From Escherichia coli (lineage in GTDB: Bacteria > Pseudomonadota > Gammaproteobacteria > Enterobacterales > Enterobacteriaceae), in assembly GCF_048403405.1 (NCBI RefSeq), contig NZ_CP183129.1: a DNA stretch of 64,000 nucleotides. The stretch is one strand, 5' to 3'. The first letter of the stretch is position 1. Each line of letters starts with the position of its first letter. Below are positions 10,599 to 37,751 of this stretch, one piece after another. The notes below the pieces were generated by a model that ran no database searches, was not told the origin of the DNA, and was given only the letters and a program-made list of their open reading frames with translations. The position numbers and the translations under genes are program-made.

Positions 10599-10625
10599 CG
10601 CCTCTCCACACGGAGAGGCGTTTTT
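10599..10625 (+). terminator. rho-independent terminator of fbp
   Basis: cgcctctcc / ggagaggcg stem with loop acac, followed by ttttt 10621-10625; overlaps the yjfF stop. Confidence 0.75.
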
Positions 10626-11619
10626 ATCGCTGCGCAATATTGACTCTTGTCACAGGCGAACTCTGACGATTCTCCCACAGCACCGTTAATCCACGCTGTA
10701 ATGCTATAAAAATAAACAACAAAATACCGATGGCGATTTTCGTCCACCATGAGCTCAGCGTGCCATCAAAGTTTATGTAAGTCTGAATCAGTCCCTGAAT
10801 CGCCACGCCAAAAAGCGTCCCTAATACCGTTCCAACGCCACCGCTCAAAAGCGTACCGCCAATCACCACTGAGGCGATAGCGTCCAGTTCCACACCTACG
10901 CCCGCCAGCGCATATCCGGCCTGGGTATAAATCGAGAAGACAATACCCGCCAGCGTTGCCAGTCCGGTGGAGAGCATATAAATGCGAATAGTGGTGCTGC
11001 GCGTGGAAATCCCCATCAGGTTCGCCGACGTTGTGTTGCCGCCAATGGCGTACACCTGATTACCAAAACGGGTACGATGCGCGAGGAATATGCCGATAAC
11101 CACCACCGCCAGCATCAGCAGCCCCATCGCACTTAAGCGACCGCCGCCAGGGATTTTCCATGCAAGGCTTGAGAGCGTGTCATAAACAGGATGATTTATC
11201 GGGATCGACTCTTCCGAAACGAGATAGCTGACGCCACGCAAAAAGAACATTCCTGCCAGAGTAATGATAAACGCCGGGATCTTCAGGGCGTCGATCAAAA
11301 GCCCCATAAATGCGCCAAAGGCACAGCCCATCACCAGCACCAGTGGAAACGCCAGCAGCGGCGAGAGGCCGAAATCGCCAATCACTTTTGCCAGAAACAC
11401 GCCGGTAAAGGCGATCACCGAACCGACGGAGAGATCGATCCCACCGGAGAGGATCACAAAGGTCATGCCAACAGCGATGATCCCCAGAAAAGCGTTATCG
11501 GTCAGGATATTGCAGATCACTCTTGTGGAAGCAAAACCGGGAAACTGGGTCAGGCAGTAGAAATAACCCAGCACAAAGACGCCGATGGTGATCATCAGTG
11601 GCAAATTACGTTTTATCAC
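10624..11619 (-). CDS. yjfF: ABC transporter permease (galactofuranose system)
   Basis: 331 aa polytopic membrane protein; GTG start; overlaps the ytfT 3' end by 14 nt. Confidence 0.9.
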   Translation of the reverse strand: MIKRNLPLMITIGVFVLGYFYCLTQFPGFASTRVICNILTDNAFLGIIAVGMTFVILSGGIDLSVGSVIAFTGVFLAKVIGDFGLSPLLAFPLVLVMGCAFGAFMGLLIDALKIPAFIITLAGMFFLRGVSYLVSEESIPINHPVYDTLSSLAWKIPGGGRLSAMGLLMLAVVVIGIFLAHRTRFGNQVYAIGGNTTSANLMGISTRSTTIRIYMLSTGLATLAGIVFSIYTQAGYALAGVGVELDAIASVVIGGTLLSGGVGTVLGTLFGVAIQGLIQTYINFDGTLSSWWTKIAIGILLFIFIALQRGLTVLWENRQSSPVTRVNIAQR

Positions 11620-12628
11620 GGCTACGCACTCCTTTAATCAGACTGATAAAGCGTTGCGACTGGACAATCAGCACGCAAAGCACCACCACCGCTTTCACCA
11701 CCTGGTTCATCTCCGGCGGAAAGCCCGAAAGCAAAATTCCGGTGTTCATCCCCTGAATAATCAGCGCCCCTACCACTGAGAGCAGCAGGTTAAAACGCCC
11801 GCCCATCAGCGATCCGCCGCCAATCACCACCGCGAGAATGGCGTCCAGCTCCAGCCATAATCCGGCGTTGTTGGCATCGGCACCGCGAATATCCGCCGCC
11901 ACGATAATGCCCGCAATCGCCGCACACAGCCCGCTCAACACGTAGGTGAGCATGACGATGAATCGCGTGTTGACTCCGGCATTTTTTGCCGCCCGAATGT
12001 TGATACCAACGGCTTCGATAAACATCCCCAGCGCCGTTTTGCGGGTCAACAGCCAGAACAGGAGAAGCGTCAGCAACGCGATAATGACCGGCGTTGGCAG
12101 GAACAATAGCGATCCGCTGCCAAACCATGAGAGATCCGGCGAGTTAAACGTGACGATCTGTCCGGAGGTGATCAGTTGCGCCACGCCGCGCCCGGCGACC
12201 ATCAGGATCAGGGTGGCAACAAACGGCTGAATTTTGAGGATCGCTACCAGTATGCCGTTCCACAATCCTGCCAGGATGCCAGTGCCCAGGGCGCTTAACA
12301 AAACAATCGGCAGGCTGAATCCCGCGACCGTCATCGCAGCCGTTGTGGCTCCGGCGATAGCCATCACCGCCCCTACGGAGAGATCAATCCCACCAGTGGC
12401 GATAACCAGCGTCATGCCAATCGCCAGTAGCGCAACGGGGGCCGCACGGTTAAGAATGTCGATAGGGCTACCGAACAAACGCCCATCCTGAAGCACCACC
12501 TGCCAGAAATGCGGGGCCACCAGGCTATCGACCAGCAGCACCAGCAACAGTGCCGCCAGCTGCGGCATTCCTGTTGGCCAGCGAAAACGCCTTTTCGGCG
12601 GCGTAGTGTCCGGGAGAGATTGAGGCAT
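11606..12628 (-). CDS. ytfT: ABC transporter permease (galactofuranose system)
   Basis: Membrane permease; ATG at 12626-12628 preceded by aaggag; alternative GTG (12631) or TTG (12652) starts possible. Confidence 0.88.
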   Translation of the reverse strand: MPQSLPDTTPPKRRFRWPTGMPQLAALLLVLLVDSLVAPHFWQVVLQDGRLFGSPIDILNRAAPVALLAIGMTLVIATGGIDLSVGAVMAIAGATTAAMTVAGFSLPIVLLSALGTGILAGLWNGILVAILKIQPFVATLILMVAGRGVAQLITSGQIVTFNSPDLSWFGSGSLLFLPTPVIIALLTLLLFWLLTRKTALGMFIEAVGINIRAAKNAGVNTRFIVMLTYVLSGLCAAIAGIIVAADIRGADANNAGLWLELDAILAVVIGGGSLMGGRFNLLLSVVGALIIQGMNTGILLSGFPPEMNQVVKAVVVLCVLIVQSQRFISLIKGVRSRDKT

Positions 12629-12641
12629 CACACTGTTCTCC

Positions 12642-14144
12642 TTACGCCGCAATGGCGTTCATGATCGCCGGAACGGAAAGCTCTGCCAGCGGGATCTCCG
12701 CCACCTGTTTGCGATCGCGCATGATAATCACCCGATCGGCATAGCCCACCAGCTCTTCCAGTTCGGAGGAGATCACCAGCAGCGCCAGACCATCAGCGCA
12801 CAGCGTTTCAATCAGGCGGATGATCTCGGCATGCGCACCAACATCAATGCCGCGGGTTGGCTCGTCGAGGATCAGAAATTGCGGTCGGGTCAGTAGCCAA
12901 CGTGAAAGCAACACTTTTTGCTGATTGCCGCCGGAGAGAAATTCAATCGGTTGTTCAGTTGAAGGTGTGCGAATGCCAAGCTGGCGGATAAAGCGTTGGG
13001 CAATCTCTTGCTGTTCTTTGCGGGAAATCGGTCGTAGCCAGCCGCGCTGGGCCTGGAGAGCGAGGATGATATTTTCCCGCACCGAGGCGGCGGCGATGAT
13101 GCCATCGGTTTTCCTGTCTTCCGGGCAGAAGCCGATACCCAGTACCGAAGCCTGATGTGGCGATCGCAGGGTTTGCTGTTTGCCTTTGATCAACGCCGTG
13201 CCGCTGTCAGCAGGTTTGATCCCGAAGATCACTTCGGCGGTTTCGGTACGTCCTGATCCCAGCAAGCCTGCCAGGCCAACGATCTCGCCGGGGCGTACTT
13301 CGAGATCAAACGGTGCGATCGTTCCTTTTTTGCCGTAATTTTTGAACGCGGCAACGGGTTTGTCGCTCAGCAATGTTCGTCCGGCACGCTGTAGCGCGTG
13401 GGTGTCCAGCTCACGCCCCAGCATCATTTTTACCAGTTCGATCTGCGGTAGCTCGCGGGTTTCCCGACAGCCTACGAAACTGCCGTTGCGTAAGACGGTG
13501 ATCCGATCGCTGACCTGATAGACCTGATCGAGAAAGTGAGTGACAAAGATCAGGCTGACGCCGCGATCGCGCAACTGACGCATCAGGCCAAACAGTAACT
13601 CTACTTCCTGAGTGTCGAGACTGGCAGTGGGTTCATCGAGGATCAGCACTTTGGCGGAGAGATCGATAGCCCGGCAAATGGCGACGATTTGCTGCATCGC
13701 GACTGAAAAGCGGTTGAGCGGTTCGCGCACGTCGAGGGAGAAACCGTAAGATGCCATCAGTTCGGTGGCGCGCTTTTCCATCTCTTTACGGCGTAGAAGG
13801 CCGAAACGTTTGGGTTCGCGACCTATGAATAGATTATCAGCGACCGACATATTGGGTAGCAGGTTGACTTCCTGATAGACGGTGCCGATGCCGAGTTGTT
13901 GTGCGTGGGCGGTATTTTTCGGTGAGATAGTCTGGCCTTCCAGCCAGATGGTGCCACGATCGGCGTGGTAGACACCGGTTAAGGCTTTGATTAGCGTTGA
14001 TTTTCCCGCCCCGTTTTCACCGAGCAGCGCCATGATTTCACCACGGCGCAGGCTGAAATTAACGTTATCTAACGCTTTGACGCCGGGGAAAAATTTACTT
14101 AATCCTTCGGTGCGGAGGATTTCCTGGTGTTGGTTAGTATTCAT
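12642..14144 (-). CDS. ytfR: ABC transporter ATP-binding protein with duplicated ATPase domains (galactofuranose system)
   Basis: 500 aa from MNTNQHQEIL; two Walker A motifs (GENGAGKST, GLLGSGRTE). Confidence 0.92.
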   Translation of the reverse strand: MNTNQHQEILRTEGLSKFFPGVKALDNVNFSLRRGEIMALLGENGAGKSTLIKALTGVYHADRGTIWLEGQTISPKNTAHAQQLGIGTVYQEVNLLPNMSVADNLFIGREPKRFGLLRRKEMEKRATELMASYGFSLDVREPLNRFSVAMQQIVAICRAIDLSAKVLILDEPTASLDTQEVELLFGLMRQLRDRGVSLIFVTHFLDQVYQVSDRITVLRNGSFVGCRETRELPQIELVKMMLGRELDTHALQRAGRTLLSDKPVAAFKNYGKKGTIAPFDLEVRPGEIVGLAGLLGSGRTETAEVIFGIKPADSGTALIKGKQQTLRSPHQASVLGIGFCPEDRKTDGIIAAASVRENIILALQAQRGWLRPISRKEQQEIAQRFIRQLGIRTPSTEQPIEFLSGGNQQKVLLSRWLLTRPQFLILDEPTRGIDVGAHAEIIRLIETLCADGLALLVISSELEELVGYADRVIIMRDRKQVAEIPLAELSVPAIMNAIAA

Positions 14145-14200
14145 AGTTTCCCCCGGTGAAAAGCGTGCGCCCGGTAAGCCAGATAAGACACAACAGCGTC

Positions 14201-14285
14201 GCATCAGGCATCTCGCACAATCGCCGGATGCGGCATAAACACCTTATCCGGCGGCGTACAAGTCGGCATCAGGCATTGATGCCCC
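14201..14285. repeat. REP-containing repeat cluster
   Basis: cgccggatgcggcataaacaccttatccggcg flanked by duplicated gcatcaggca motifs, between ytfR and ytfQ. Confidence 0.75.
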
Positions 14286-15242
14286 TCAATACCCCATATT
14301 TTTCTTTTTCTCTAACTCTTCTTTTGCGGTATCAGGCAGATAAAGGGTGGATTTGGTCAGTGTTAGCTTTTCAGGCATGGTGCCGTCTTTTTTGTATTTC
14401 TCCAGCGCGTCGAAAGCAGGACCTGCCATGTTCGGCGTCAGTTCAACACTGGCGTTCGCTTCGCCATCAATCATCGCTTTGTAGATATCCGGTACGCCAT
14501 CAATGGAACCCGTGAGGATATCTTTACCCGGCTTCAGGCCCGCTTCTTTAATTGCCTGAATTGCGCCAATCACCATGTCATCGTTATGGGCGTAAACCAT
14601 GCAGATGTTTTTGCCGTTGTTTTCTGCTTTGATAAAGCTCTCCATCACTTCTTTGCCTTTGCTGCGGGTGAAGTCACCTGACTGCGAGCGGATAATTTTG
14701 ATATTTGGCGCATTCTTAATGGCTTCGGCAAAGCCTTTCTTACGGTCAATGGCGACGCTGGCCCCAACGGTGCCCTGCAGCTCCACCACGTTGCATGGTT
14801 TGCCATTCACTTCTTTTACCAGCCAGTCACCAATCAACTTGCCTTCGAGGATGTTGTCGGCGGTGACAGTGGTCATATAGAGAGATTTGTCTTTCACATC
14901 GATGGAACGGTCAAGCAAGAAGACCGGGATTTCGGCATCTTTCGCCTCTTTTAATACCGGCTCCCAACCGGTCGCTACCACTGGAGCGATAAAGATCGCA
15001 TCCACCCCTTGCGCGACGAAGGAACGTACCGCTTTAATCTGGTTTTCCTGCTTTTGCTGACCATCGGCAATTTTCAACGTAATTCCGCGCTTTTCGGCTT
15101 CACTTTTCGCCACATTGGTTTCTGCGGCGCGCCAGCCGGATTCCGATCCGACCTGCGAAAATCCAACGGTTAATGGAGCGGCCAACGCCATAGACGACAT
15201 GGCTGCCGAGACTGCAGAGACTACAAGTAAGCGTTTCCACAT
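14286..15242 (-). CDS. ytfQ: periplasmic galactofuranose-binding protein
   Basis: 318 aa with signal peptide; periplasmic sugar-binding family. Confidence 0.93.
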   Translation of the reverse strand: MWKRLLVVSAVSAAMSSMALAAPLTVGFSQVGSESGWRAAETNVAKSEAEKRGITLKIADGQQKQENQIKAVRSFVAQGVDAIFIAPVVATGWEPVLKEAKDAEIPVFLLDRSIDVKDKSLYMTTVTADNILEGKLIGDWLVKEVNGKPCNVVELQGTVGASVAIDRKKGFAEAIKNAPNIKIIRSQSGDFTRSKGKEVMESFIKAENNGKNICMVYAHNDDMVIGAIQAIKEAGLKPGKDILTGSIDGVPDIYKAMIDGEANASVELTPNMAGPAFDALEKYKKDGTMPEKLTLTKSTLYLPDTAKEELEKKKNMGY

Positions 15243-36456: not shown

Positions 36457-37095
36457 ATGCCCGGGCGCTTTGAACTAAAACCAACCCTGGAGAAAGTCTG
36501 GCACGCGCCAGACAATTTTCGCTTCATGGACCCGCTGCCGCCGATGCATCGTCGGGGGATCATTATTGCCGCCATTGTATTGGTGGTCGGATTTCTGCTT
36601 CCATCTGATGATACGCCCAACGCGCCGGTGGTGACGCGTGAAGCGCAGTTAGATATTCAGTCGCAATCACAACCACCGACAGAAGAACAGCTGCGGGCGC
36701 AATTAGTCACGCCACAAAATGATCCTGATCAGGTGGCTCCGGTCGCTCCAGAACCAATACAGGAAGGCCAGCCAGAAGAGCAGCCGCAACCCCCCCAAAC
36801 GCAACCATTCCAGCCAGATAGCGGAATTGATAATCAATGGCGCTCTTACCGTGTCGAACCCGGTAAAACGATGGCACAGCTGTTCCGCGACCACGGGCTG
36901 CCCGCTACCGATGTCTATGCAATGGCGCAGGTAGAAGGCGCGGGTAAGCCGCTGAGTAATTTGCAAAACGGGCAGATGGTGAAAATCCGCCAGAACGCCA
37001 GCGGCGTGGTGACGGGCTTAACCATTGATACGGGGAATAATCAACAGGTCTTGTTTACCCGCCAGCCGGATGGCAGTTTTATTCGTGCGCGGTAG
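36457..37095 (+). CDS. ytfB: cell division protein YtfB (OapA-like)
   Basis: 212 aa from MPGRFELK (ATG 36457 with aggagg SD); TM segment and Pro/Gln-rich linker. Confidence 0.9.
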
Positions 37096-37404
37096 ATGAA
37101 GGGTCAACCAAAAGCCAGCTAAGGATTGTCTCTTTGATGACCTTACGTCTGGCTTCCAGTGCCTGGGGGAAACCATACTGATATGATAAACCAGGCCAAG
37201 CGTATGCTGGTTGATCAAATAATATCCCCCAAGCGCAGCAATATTAATATACACCTGCAATGGGTCGATATCTGGCTTAAAAATATTGTGTTTCTTCCCT
37301 TCATCCAATAAGGATTCCATTAACTGCAAGTGCGCATGATTAATTTCTAAGAGACGCTGTGATTTTGCATAATGCACACCTTTACTTTGGTTTTCACTAT
37401 GCAC
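37018..37404 (-). pseudogene. ytfA: remnant of a TetR-family regulator (C-terminal ligand-binding part only)
   Basis: ORF with GTG start; sequence (…[22 protein letters not shown]…) resembles a TetR C-terminal domain; no HTH domain; overlaps the ytfB 3' end antisense by 78 nt. Confidence 0.45.
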
Positions 37405-37751
37405 AATTTTTAAAAACCTGGGATTAGCAATATAATAATTCCATGTAAAATCAATAATTTCTCAATGGCACTTGTGTCTGGTTAACCTGCTGATTAACGA
37501 ACTTACCGATACCGACAGCGTAGAATAATTACATACCGCACAACAAGAATGTATGGTGTAAGGCGTTGTCAGTCATCTCCCTCCCTGGGTGCATCGTTAT
37601 ATCCGTGATGAGCGATTTTTGATATTAATATCTTTTACTATCCGCTATTTTCACCACTTCAGAAAACAAACTTATTTTTATTAATATCAACTCTTTTTCT
37701 TTGAACATTCAACTGCGATATTTGTAAAAATATTAAACAGGCAACAATAAA

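Follow-up and report, generated by a model that had tools for sequence, protein, structure and literature searches.

The closely packed and slightly ambiguous translation starts of ytfR, ytfT and yjfF in Escherichia coli are real, ordinary and already catalogued. The genes probably form a standard polycistronic ABC-transporter operon, in which internal genes with ordinary Shine-Dalgarno (SD)-led starts are packed against the preceding stops. Main initiation of ytfT would occur at GUG 12631, positioned by a UAAGGAG motif that includes the ytfR stop codon, and yjfF would be initiated at GUG 11619, 14 nt ahead of the ytfT stop, via an AAAGGAG motif within ytfT. The evidence favours GTG 12631 as the best-supported start of ytfT. 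ATG 12628 may be a minor start besides it, with a product one residue shorter.

The ytfQ-ytfR-ytfT-yjfF operon occupies positions 10624-15242 on the minus strand of the window, the whole 64,000-nucleotide stretch of DNA that was analysed. Its sequence identifies it as the galactofuranose ABC transporter operon of E. coli; galactofuranose, taken from the family name, is its putative substrate. The following features define it:

14286-15242, minus strand: ytfQ, periplasmic galactofuranose-binding protein (NF041827, 633 bits, cutoff 510; RefSeq CDS)
14196-14236, no strand assigned: pair of REP-like elements in opposite orientations in the ytfQ-ytfR spacer (pattern GCCKGATGCGRCGY)
12642-14144, minus strand: ytfR, ATPase with two ABC domains, 500 aa (NF041861, 863 bits, cutoff 850; RefSeq CDS)
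11606-12631, minus strand: ytfT, permease subunit (NF041862, 633 bits, cutoff 535)
10624-11619, minus strand: yjfF, second permease subunit (NF008630, 568 bits, cutoff 363)

All four proteins (YtfQ, YtfR, YtfT and YjfF) score over the curated NCBIfam equivalog cutoff, and the names ytfR, ytfT and yjfF in the original prediction are thereby right. The gene order, with ytfQ first and the operon lying between ppa and fbp, is that of the RefSeq annotation of an identical genome and of K-12. Pfam finds ABC_tran in two stretches of YtfR, and BPD_transp_2 in one stretch of YtfT, where ABC_tran is absent. The permease YtfT is misnamed 'ATP-binding protein' in both PGAP-annotated RefSeq genomes examined.

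In the ytfQ-ytfR spacer, GCCKGATGCGRCGY matches at 14196-14209 (minus strand) and 14223-14236 (plus strand); the window holds five matches against 0.29 expected. An inverted-repeat search of this spacer at seed 7 found none, while the REP consensus pattern finds the two elements. Tight junctions are usual in the window: chpS/chpB is at -7, tamA/tamB at -4 and ulaE/ulaF at -1, and the gaps within ulaA-D are 9-15 nt.

The ytfR stop is TAA 12644-12642 and the ytfT stop is TAA 11608-11606, both on the minus strand. The region around the ytfT start contains five features:

12650-12652, minus strand: TTG, rejected ytfT start candidate, within ytfR and spanning codons ATT and GCG
12638-12644, minus strand: UAAGGAG, ytfT SD fused with the ytfR stop codon (sequence; duplex of -9.2 kcal/mol)
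12628-12633, minus strand: out-of-frame GUG-UGA start-stop overlapping the ytfT start (sequence; GUGUGA context)
12629-12631, minus strand: GTG, best-supported ytfT start, 341 aa (NC_000913.3 annotation; tetracycline ribosome profiling, TetRP; conservation)
12626-12628, minus strand: ATG, ytfT codon 2 and PGAP start, 340 aa (PGAP CDS 11606-12628)

Three in-frame candidates had been proposed for ytfT, and all three are found where they were placed (TTG 12652-12650, GTG 12631-12629 and ATG 12628-12626), giving proteins of 348, 341 and 340 aa. Annotated length does vary with the start chosen, as had been claimed: NC_000913.3 has 1026 nt and 341 aa from GTG, and PGAP has 1023 nt and 340 aa from ATG. 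The proposed SD, aaggag, is present, but its position of 12639-12644 was off by one; those letters read TAAGGA, and AAGGAG lies at 12643-12638. It is indeed placed for GTG or ATG and not for TTG, with a best anti-SD duplex of -9.2 kcal/mol for GTG and ATG versus -2.1 kcal/mol for TTG. One SD serves two in-frame starts, GTG 12631 and ATG 12628. The corresponding duplex for the yjfF GTG is -8.2 kcal/mol. As background, 243 NTG sites of the operon were scored; 2% have a duplex of -8 kcal/mol or lower, and both SD-led starts are clearly beyond chance. Both ytfT and yjfF combine strong anti-SD complementarity with a near-optimal aligned spacing from the NUG. GGAG at +1 to +4 is invariant in 32 distinct orthologous junctions. 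The start of ytfT is ambiguous, but less so than implied: TTG is excluded comparatively, and the choice between GTG and ATG was already dealt with in the K-12 re-annotation (2006 to 2014) and in the TetRP study (PMC4909307).

Annotation, spacing and conservation all bear on GTG 12631. The curated K-12 record NC_000913.3 starts ytfT at GTG, and Table S3 of Nakahigashi et al. (2016) lists its 2014 start as lying 3 nt upstream of the 2006 one, with manual TetRP inspection scored '3. 2014' (PMC4909307). This call is weak for GTG over ATG because TetRP resolves one-codon differences poorly; on this ground the authors dropped 20 one-codon cases (PMC4909307). For ytfT, an SD of UAAGGAG, a DtoStart of 13 and no predicted ambiguity are tabulated (PMC9841429, Table 3). 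The aligned spacing optimum is near 14 and the genomic mode about 13-14 (PMC9841429); by the same measure ATG 12628 is at 16.

The codon test was conditioned only on ATG at +14, which gave 39 loci and 32 distinct sequences. Among the latter, 29 have GTG at +11 and three have ATG, with no other codon there, while the spacer from +5 to +10 has an entropy of 1.3-1.96 bits and the codon at +8 takes 15 forms. The orthologs are related, and these sequence counts overstate the number of independent events. Of the 49 junctions having a start at +11, 39 also carry ATG at +14. The ten loci that lack it belong to Cedecea and Cedecea-like genomes, Rahnella, Vibrio, Hafnia, Brenneria and Rouxiella. In the Cedecea-type loci L022 and L030, GTG is at +11 and ATG at +14 is absent. 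The sole start is ATG at +11 in Rahnella, Hafnia, Brenneria, Rouxiella and two Vibrio loci, and ATG at +12 in two Yersinia loci; in twelve loci of more distant genera the sole start near the SD is at the place of the GTG. ATG 12628 itself is kept in every ortholog of at least 84% identity, and given this presence it may have been selected as a start. The supplements of TRAINSPOTTER and of a Salmonella riboproteogenomics paper contain no entries for ytfT, yjfF or ytfR, and among the publications found to name both ytfT and yjfF, none deals with translation starts as judged by title and abstract.

A reading with some chance of being right, though the less probable one, is that GTG 12631 and ATG 12628 are both appreciably used, as a tandem start that makes two proteoforms one Met apart and gives robust initiation. 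The 39 loci conserve both codons jointly as RTGATG; the form is ATGATG in Klebsiella and Shimwellia, and ATGGTGATG is found in four loci. Codon 3 of ytfT is variable (nine forms) and codon 2 is constant, and signal at two sites was seen in many genes by Nakahigashi et al. (PMC4909307). However, conservation of the Met2 codon could serve the protein or the early coding sequence, and the functional effect of a tandem start would be negligible.

It is unlikely that ytfT starts solely or mainly at ATG 12628, with the preceding GTG in the 5' leader. PGAP chooses this ATG in strain 4621 and in one K-12-type strain, as the 2006 K-12 record did, and ATG is retained in 39/39 close orthologs. AUG is also the stronger start codon, about 3.5-fold over GUG in one construct pair (PMC9841429), and the poor one-codon resolution of TetRP leaves room for it. 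A GTG in the leader should nevertheless vary like the adjoining spacer, yet the codon is GTG or ATG in 32/32 distinct sequences. The Cedecea-type loci that keep GTG without ATG, the distant genera with a start only at the position of the GTG, the less favourable spacing (16 versus 13) and the curators' shift to GTG, with which TetRP was scored in agreement, also speak against it.

The original prediction overlooked a fourth, out-of-frame GTG at 12633, which gives the site GUGUGAUG. The annotated start of ytfT thus lies in a GTGTG context, caGTGTGATG, and ytfT is one of 12 E. coli genes starting with gtGTG; for ytfT, initiation at both GUGs is predicted as 'no' (PMC9841429, Table 3). Its start as annotated is the second, 3' GUG in GUGUG, with the SD UAAGGAG and a DtoStart of 13; GUGUG is followed by A in ytfT, so that the 5' GUG becomes GUG-UGA. 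It seems improbable that this conserved type of arrangement, an out-of-frame NUG-UGA start-stop overlapping the true GUG with an AUG behind it as back-up, is a selected device and not an accident. In such a device, a ribosome bound one step too early would terminate immediately and then restart in frame, the behaviour shown for narQ, and the tandem RUG-AUG would ensure a low but dependable output of the permease subunit. Of 27 distinct orthologous junctions that were eligible, 11 carry NTG-TGA (P=0.0065, with no correction for ancestry). In contrast to narQ, for which tests showed that both GUGs are used and that expression depends on the start-stop (PMC9841429), ytfT is only predicted, as unambiguous.

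A start of ytfT at TTG 12652 (348 aa, overlapping ytfR by 11 nt) can be dismissed almost entirely: it is refuted comparatively, the codon being a by-product of the last Ile-Ala codons of ytfR. No other in-frame NTG precedes this TTG in the open frame, and the overlap would be like the Pantoea/Erwinia arrangement ATGCTTGA. With a chance rate of about 3/64 per codon, however, one extra TTG is the chance expectation, and this one is without an SD. Among 54 comparable junctions the TTG is open through to the real start in 25 and unusable in 29. The TTG itself is missing in 18 of these, for example where Ile is ATC in ytfR, and 11 keep it with an in-frame TAA or TAG before the GTG (for example in Klebsiella, Kosakonia, Trabulsiella, Pseudocitrobacter and Cedecea). 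The NCBIfam YtfT model alignment begins at residue 9 of the 348-aa form, and no annotation uses this start.

The preferred reading, ordinary SD-led starts packed against the preceding stops, also covers the second junction, where two features are found:

11629-11635, minus strand: AAAGGAG, yjfF SD, inside ytfT codons Lys-Gly-Val (-8.2 kcal/mol, spacing 8-9 nt)
11606-11619, minus strand: 14-nt overlap of the ytfT 3' end and the yjfF 5' end, GTGATAAAACGTAA (sequence)

The yjfF start had been predicted at a GTG inside the final 14 nt of ytfT. This is exact: GTG 11619-11617 opens an overlap, 11619-11606, of precisely 14 nt. Sequence homology confirms GTG 11619 as the start. The alignment of YjfF to NF008630 runs from residue 1, its N-terminus M-[ILV]-K-R-[NH]-L-P is conserved, and the homologous start lies -14 to +4 nt from the ytfT stop in 81/81 junctions, mostly as ATG. 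The 14-nt overlap is shared with 43 orthologous loci, 37 of which start yjfF with ATG and six with GTG; in nearly all other genera the start is ATG. An AGGAG/GGGG-type motif is retained at the SD site in orthologs. In three Erwinia loci ytfT appeared to read 97-124 nt into yjfF, an artefact of a tblastn HSP extended beyond the stop; the true Erwinia junction is GTGATTAA or ATGATTAA, with an 8-nt overlap.

The conclusion that the ATPase and the two permeases are 'therefore translationally coupled' does not stand as worded, being drawn from proximity and not a result. Coupling of ytfT and yjfF is plausible. Like the short-overlap coupled pairs (ATGA, TGATG, -8 nt), the two genes are on the same strand and overlap, with the SD in the upstream gene. 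Their products are two subunits of a single heteromeric permease. The overlap would help to match the outputs of these subunits, through reinitiation by terminating ribosomes or start unmasking. Between ytfR and ytfT the same coupling may operate but is not required, independent initiation being equally possible. Reinitiation efficiency dropped with distance in the work of Huber et al. (2023, PMC10666635), and both junctions are just outside their coupling range of -8 to +6, with ytfR-ytfT at +10 nt and ytfT-yjfF at -14 nt. The 14-nt overlap of the Enterobacteriaceae exceeds this efficient range, whereas ytfT-yjfF orthologs in other genera fall within it, with the classic spacings of -8, -4 and -1 nt. 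In E. coli, 203 pairs are spaced at +9 to +12 nt, a class for which Huber et al. consider independent SD-driven initiation likely (PMC10666635). As in these pairs, the ytfR-ytfT gap holds an SD and is too short for a terminator and a promoter. Unlike them, its SD is fused with the stop codon (UAAGGAG), which would keep the terminating ribosome over the next binding site.

No conserved mRNA structure hiding the ribosome-binding site was found: folding 28 junctions to a consensus gave -5.05 kcal/mol, and none of the 11 pairs is compensatory. The mean unpaired probability is 0.45-0.48 at the binding sites versus 0.37 in the flanks. A hairpin that would sequester the SD in the minimum free energy fold of the window sequence (GGAGA with UCUCC in ytfT codons 5-6) is not conserved and was rejected as a coupling mechanism.

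The K-12 operon ytfQRT-yjfF (b4227, b4485, b4230 and b4231) has the same genes, order and flanks, with ppa upstream and fbp downstream. The first junction is identical between the window and K-12 from TTG through ATG. At the second, the K-12 start, stop and 14-nt overlap are kept, and the sole difference is silent (GGAGTG in the window versus GGAGTA in K-12). The operon DNA is 95.5-96.6% identical to that of a K-12-type strain, and the flanking genes 98-100%; no difference between the window and the K-12-type sequence falls in any start, stop or SD.

For annotation, the point is that curated K-12 starts ytfT at GTG, versus ATG in the two PGAP-annotated RefSeq genomes examined. The comparison also provides a cheap and reusable test, asking whether a candidate start codon remains a start codon when the adjoining spacer is free to vary. 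The biological weight of the choice is very small: the candidate ytfT proteins are alike except for one N-terminal methionine, which lies in a variable cytoplasmic tail, and the permease is present at about 0.09 ppm (YtfT abundance 0.086 ppm; PMC9841429).

All four proteins of the galactofuranose ABC transporter operon ytfQ-ytfR-ytfT-yjfF score above curated NCBIfam equivalog cutoffs. YtfR carries two ABC_tran stretches, and YtfT and YjfF are BPD_transp_2 permeases (Pfam). The operon stretch is held by 5,425 of 5,426 complete E. coli genomes, and that of strain 4621 is 100% identical to the window. Start, stop and Shine-Dalgarno (SD) positions were read base by base from the window sequence.

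10624-15242, minus strand: ytfQ, ytfR, ytfT and yjfF
12652, minus strand: TTG, candidate ytfT start, in frame, 348 aa
12644-12642, minus strand: ytfR stop TAA
12644-12638, minus strand: UAAGGAG, full SD motif of ytfT, containing the ytfR stop
12628-12633, minus strand: out-of-frame GUG-UGA start-stop, overlapping the ytfT start
12631, minus strand: GTG, candidate ytfT start, in frame, 341 aa
12628, minus strand: ATG, candidate ytfT start, in frame, 340 aa
11619, minus strand: GTG, yjfF start
11608-11606, minus strand: ytfT stop TAA

These positions bear out the original prediction in its three in-frame ytfT candidates and in a yjfF GTG within the last 14 nt of ytfT, the two genes overlapping by 14 nt. 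Its only positional slip is the SD, placed at 12639-12644; AAGGAG occupies 12643-12638. The claim that this SD is best placed for the ATG or GTG also holds, the best anti-SD duplex being -9.2 kcal/mol for both and -2.1 kcal/mol for the TTG. The yjfF GTG reaches -8.2 kcal/mol, and no anti-SD duplex was found for the downstream yjfF alternatives TTG 11604 and ATG 11595. Among 243 NTG sites within the operon, 2% reach -8 kcal/mol.

The ytfR-ytfT junction was compared in 80 orthologous loci, one genome per species, ranging from Escherichia to Vibrio, Aeromonas and Microvirga, each anchored on the ytfR stop (+n counts nucleotides downstream of it). The stop is fused to a GGAG-type SD in 54 junctions, and 49 of these have a start codon at precisely +11 (38 GTG, 11 ATG); in the remaining five the spacer length differs and the start falls between +8 and +15. 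A non-circular test was conditioned on ATG at +14 alone (39 loci, 32 distinct sequences). The codon at +11 is then GTG in 29 sequences, ATG in 3 and never another, while spacer columns +5 to +10 have an entropy of 1.3–1.96 bits and 15 different codons occur at the adjoining +8. The GTG is present without the ATG in two Cedecea-type loci. The only start close to the SD is an ATG at +11 in Rahnella, Hafnia, Brenneria, Rouxiella and two Vibrio loci, and an ATG at +12 in two Yersinia loci. From these comparisons, the GTG position in the window behaves like a selected start codon.

In MG1655, the curated record (NC_000913.3) starts ytfT at this GTG, 11 nt past the ytfR stop (4452571-4453596, 1026 nt). 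PGAP, the automated RefSeq annotation, uses the ATG in strain 4621 and a K-12-type strain. In Table S3 of Nakahigashi et al. 2016 (PMC4909307), the 2006 record begins ytfT at the ATG (1023 nt), and by 2014 the start had been shifted 3 nt upstream; manual inspection of tetracycline ribosome profiling is scored '3. 2014', a signal at the 2014 site, which weakly favors GTG over ATG. ytfT is also one of 12 gtGTG-starting genes of the reference genome, with SD UAAGGAG and an aligned spacing (DtoStart) of 13, the optimum being ~14 and the genomic mode ~13–14 (PMC9841429). The corresponding values are 16 for the ATG and 11 for the out-of-frame GTG. Every ortholog of at least 84% identity retains the ATG at +14, while nine different codons occur at position 3; the ATG may serve as a secondary start.

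The out-of-frame GTG at 12633 (GUGUGAUG) was overlooked in the original prediction. NTG-TGA, with GTG, TTG or ATG, recurs out of frame at the equivalent place across several genera: of 27 distinct junctions that were eligible, 11 have it, where spacer composition predicts 19% (binomial P = 0.0065, uncorrected for shared ancestry). Such a start-stop matters for narQ, whereas no ambiguity is predicted for ytfT (PMC9841429); we consider it improbable that the ytfT start-stop is a meaningful feature. The TTG, which spans ytfR codons ATT|GCG and is lost wherever Ile is ATC, is rejected because it lacks an SD and is unusable in many junctions (across 54, open to the real start in only 25, absent in 18 and blocked by in-frame TAA or TAG in 11).

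Other junction architectures were observed. Seven Rahnella, Hafnia, Rouxiella and Yersinia orthologs (L060, L061, L067, L070, L073, L074, L081) have a second in-frame ytfT ATG ~21 nt downstream of the first with its own upstream AGGAG (ATGagcaacAGGAGtctgccaATG), and thus a separate start ambiguity. In Pantoea, Erwinia and Mixta (L038-L057), GGAGG is followed 8 nt on by ATGCTTGA or ATGCCTGA, giving an 8-nt ytfR-ytfT overlap, often with a further in-frame ATG at +8.

The yjfF start is fixed by homology, since the YjfF N-terminus is conserved (M-[ILV]-K-R-[NH]-L-P). Of the 43 loci that share the 14-nt overlap, 37 start yjfF with ATG and six with GTG (the Escherichia loci and one from Citrobacter). 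In other genera the overlap is 8 nt, 4 nt (ATGA) or 1 nt (TAATG), and one has a 3-nt gap. Despite this shifting geometry, the ytfT stop and yjfF start stay within -14 to +4 nt in all orthologs, a closeness that fits selection to keep the two permease subunits tightly linked. Subunits of heteromeric complexes show an enrichment of short overlaps, and reinitiation in E. coli falls steeply with distance (Huber et al. 2023, PMC10666635). Coupling of the ATPase and both permeases, as originally proposed, is plausible for ytfT-yjfF, and possible but unnecessary for ytfR-ytfT. The latter spacing, +10 nt, belongs to the +9 to +12 nt class, whose 203 pairs are 'likely to be initiated independently', or else coupled otherwise (Huber et al. 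2023, PMC10666635). Folding revealed no conserved structure that would mask the ribosome-binding site (consensus -5.05 kcal/mol, 0/11 compensatory pairs); a hairpin in the window's own fold is lineage-specific.

Several side observations concern the operon and its surroundings. The four ytf genes are only 95.5–96.6% identical to a K-12-type strain, and flanking ppa, fbp, mpl and the fbp-mpl spacer 98–100%; the window allele occurs at ≥99% identity in 7 of 5,425 genomes, and the genes look like a divergent allele block, probably a recombined one. RefSeq/PGAP and NCBIfam NF041862 name YtfT (11606-12628) 'galactofuranose ABC transporter, ATP-binding protein'; it has no ABC_tran domain, its next-best matches are RbsC, AraH and similar permeases, and the curated K-12 record calls it the membrane subunit. 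The longest ytfR ORF, from ATG 14204 (520 aa, extended by 14145-14204), has no SD (-3.0 kcal/mol). The annotated ATG 14144 (500 aa) is preceded, at a distance of 4 nt, by GGGGGA (-8.6 kcal/mol), and the NCBIfam alignment begins at residue 9 of this form. The ytfQ-ytfR spacer (14145-14285), only 76% identical to K-12, holds two REP-like elements, and a pseudogene lies elsewhere in the window.

14196-14209, minus strand: REP-like element
14223-14236, plus strand: REP-like element, opposite orientation
37079-37462: TetR/AcrR family regulator fragment without N-terminus (pseudogene, RefSeq), overlapping the ytfB 3' end

REP elements are known to stabilize the upstream, binding-protein segment of a transcript. 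By analogy, the REP-like pair and the abundance gap between YtfQ and YtfT (329 vs 0.086 ppm; PMC9841429) would fit this pattern.

Nothing about the tight junctions of ytfR-ytfT-yjfF is out of the ordinary. Within the same 50 kb, chpS/chpB, tamA/tamB and ulaE/ulaF have overlaps of 7, 4 and 1 nt, respectively, and gaps of 9–15 nt separate the ulaA-D genes. The observation is confirmed, its original interpretation is partly supported, and the start-codon arrangement is an ordinary one, already present in the literature and in curated annotation.
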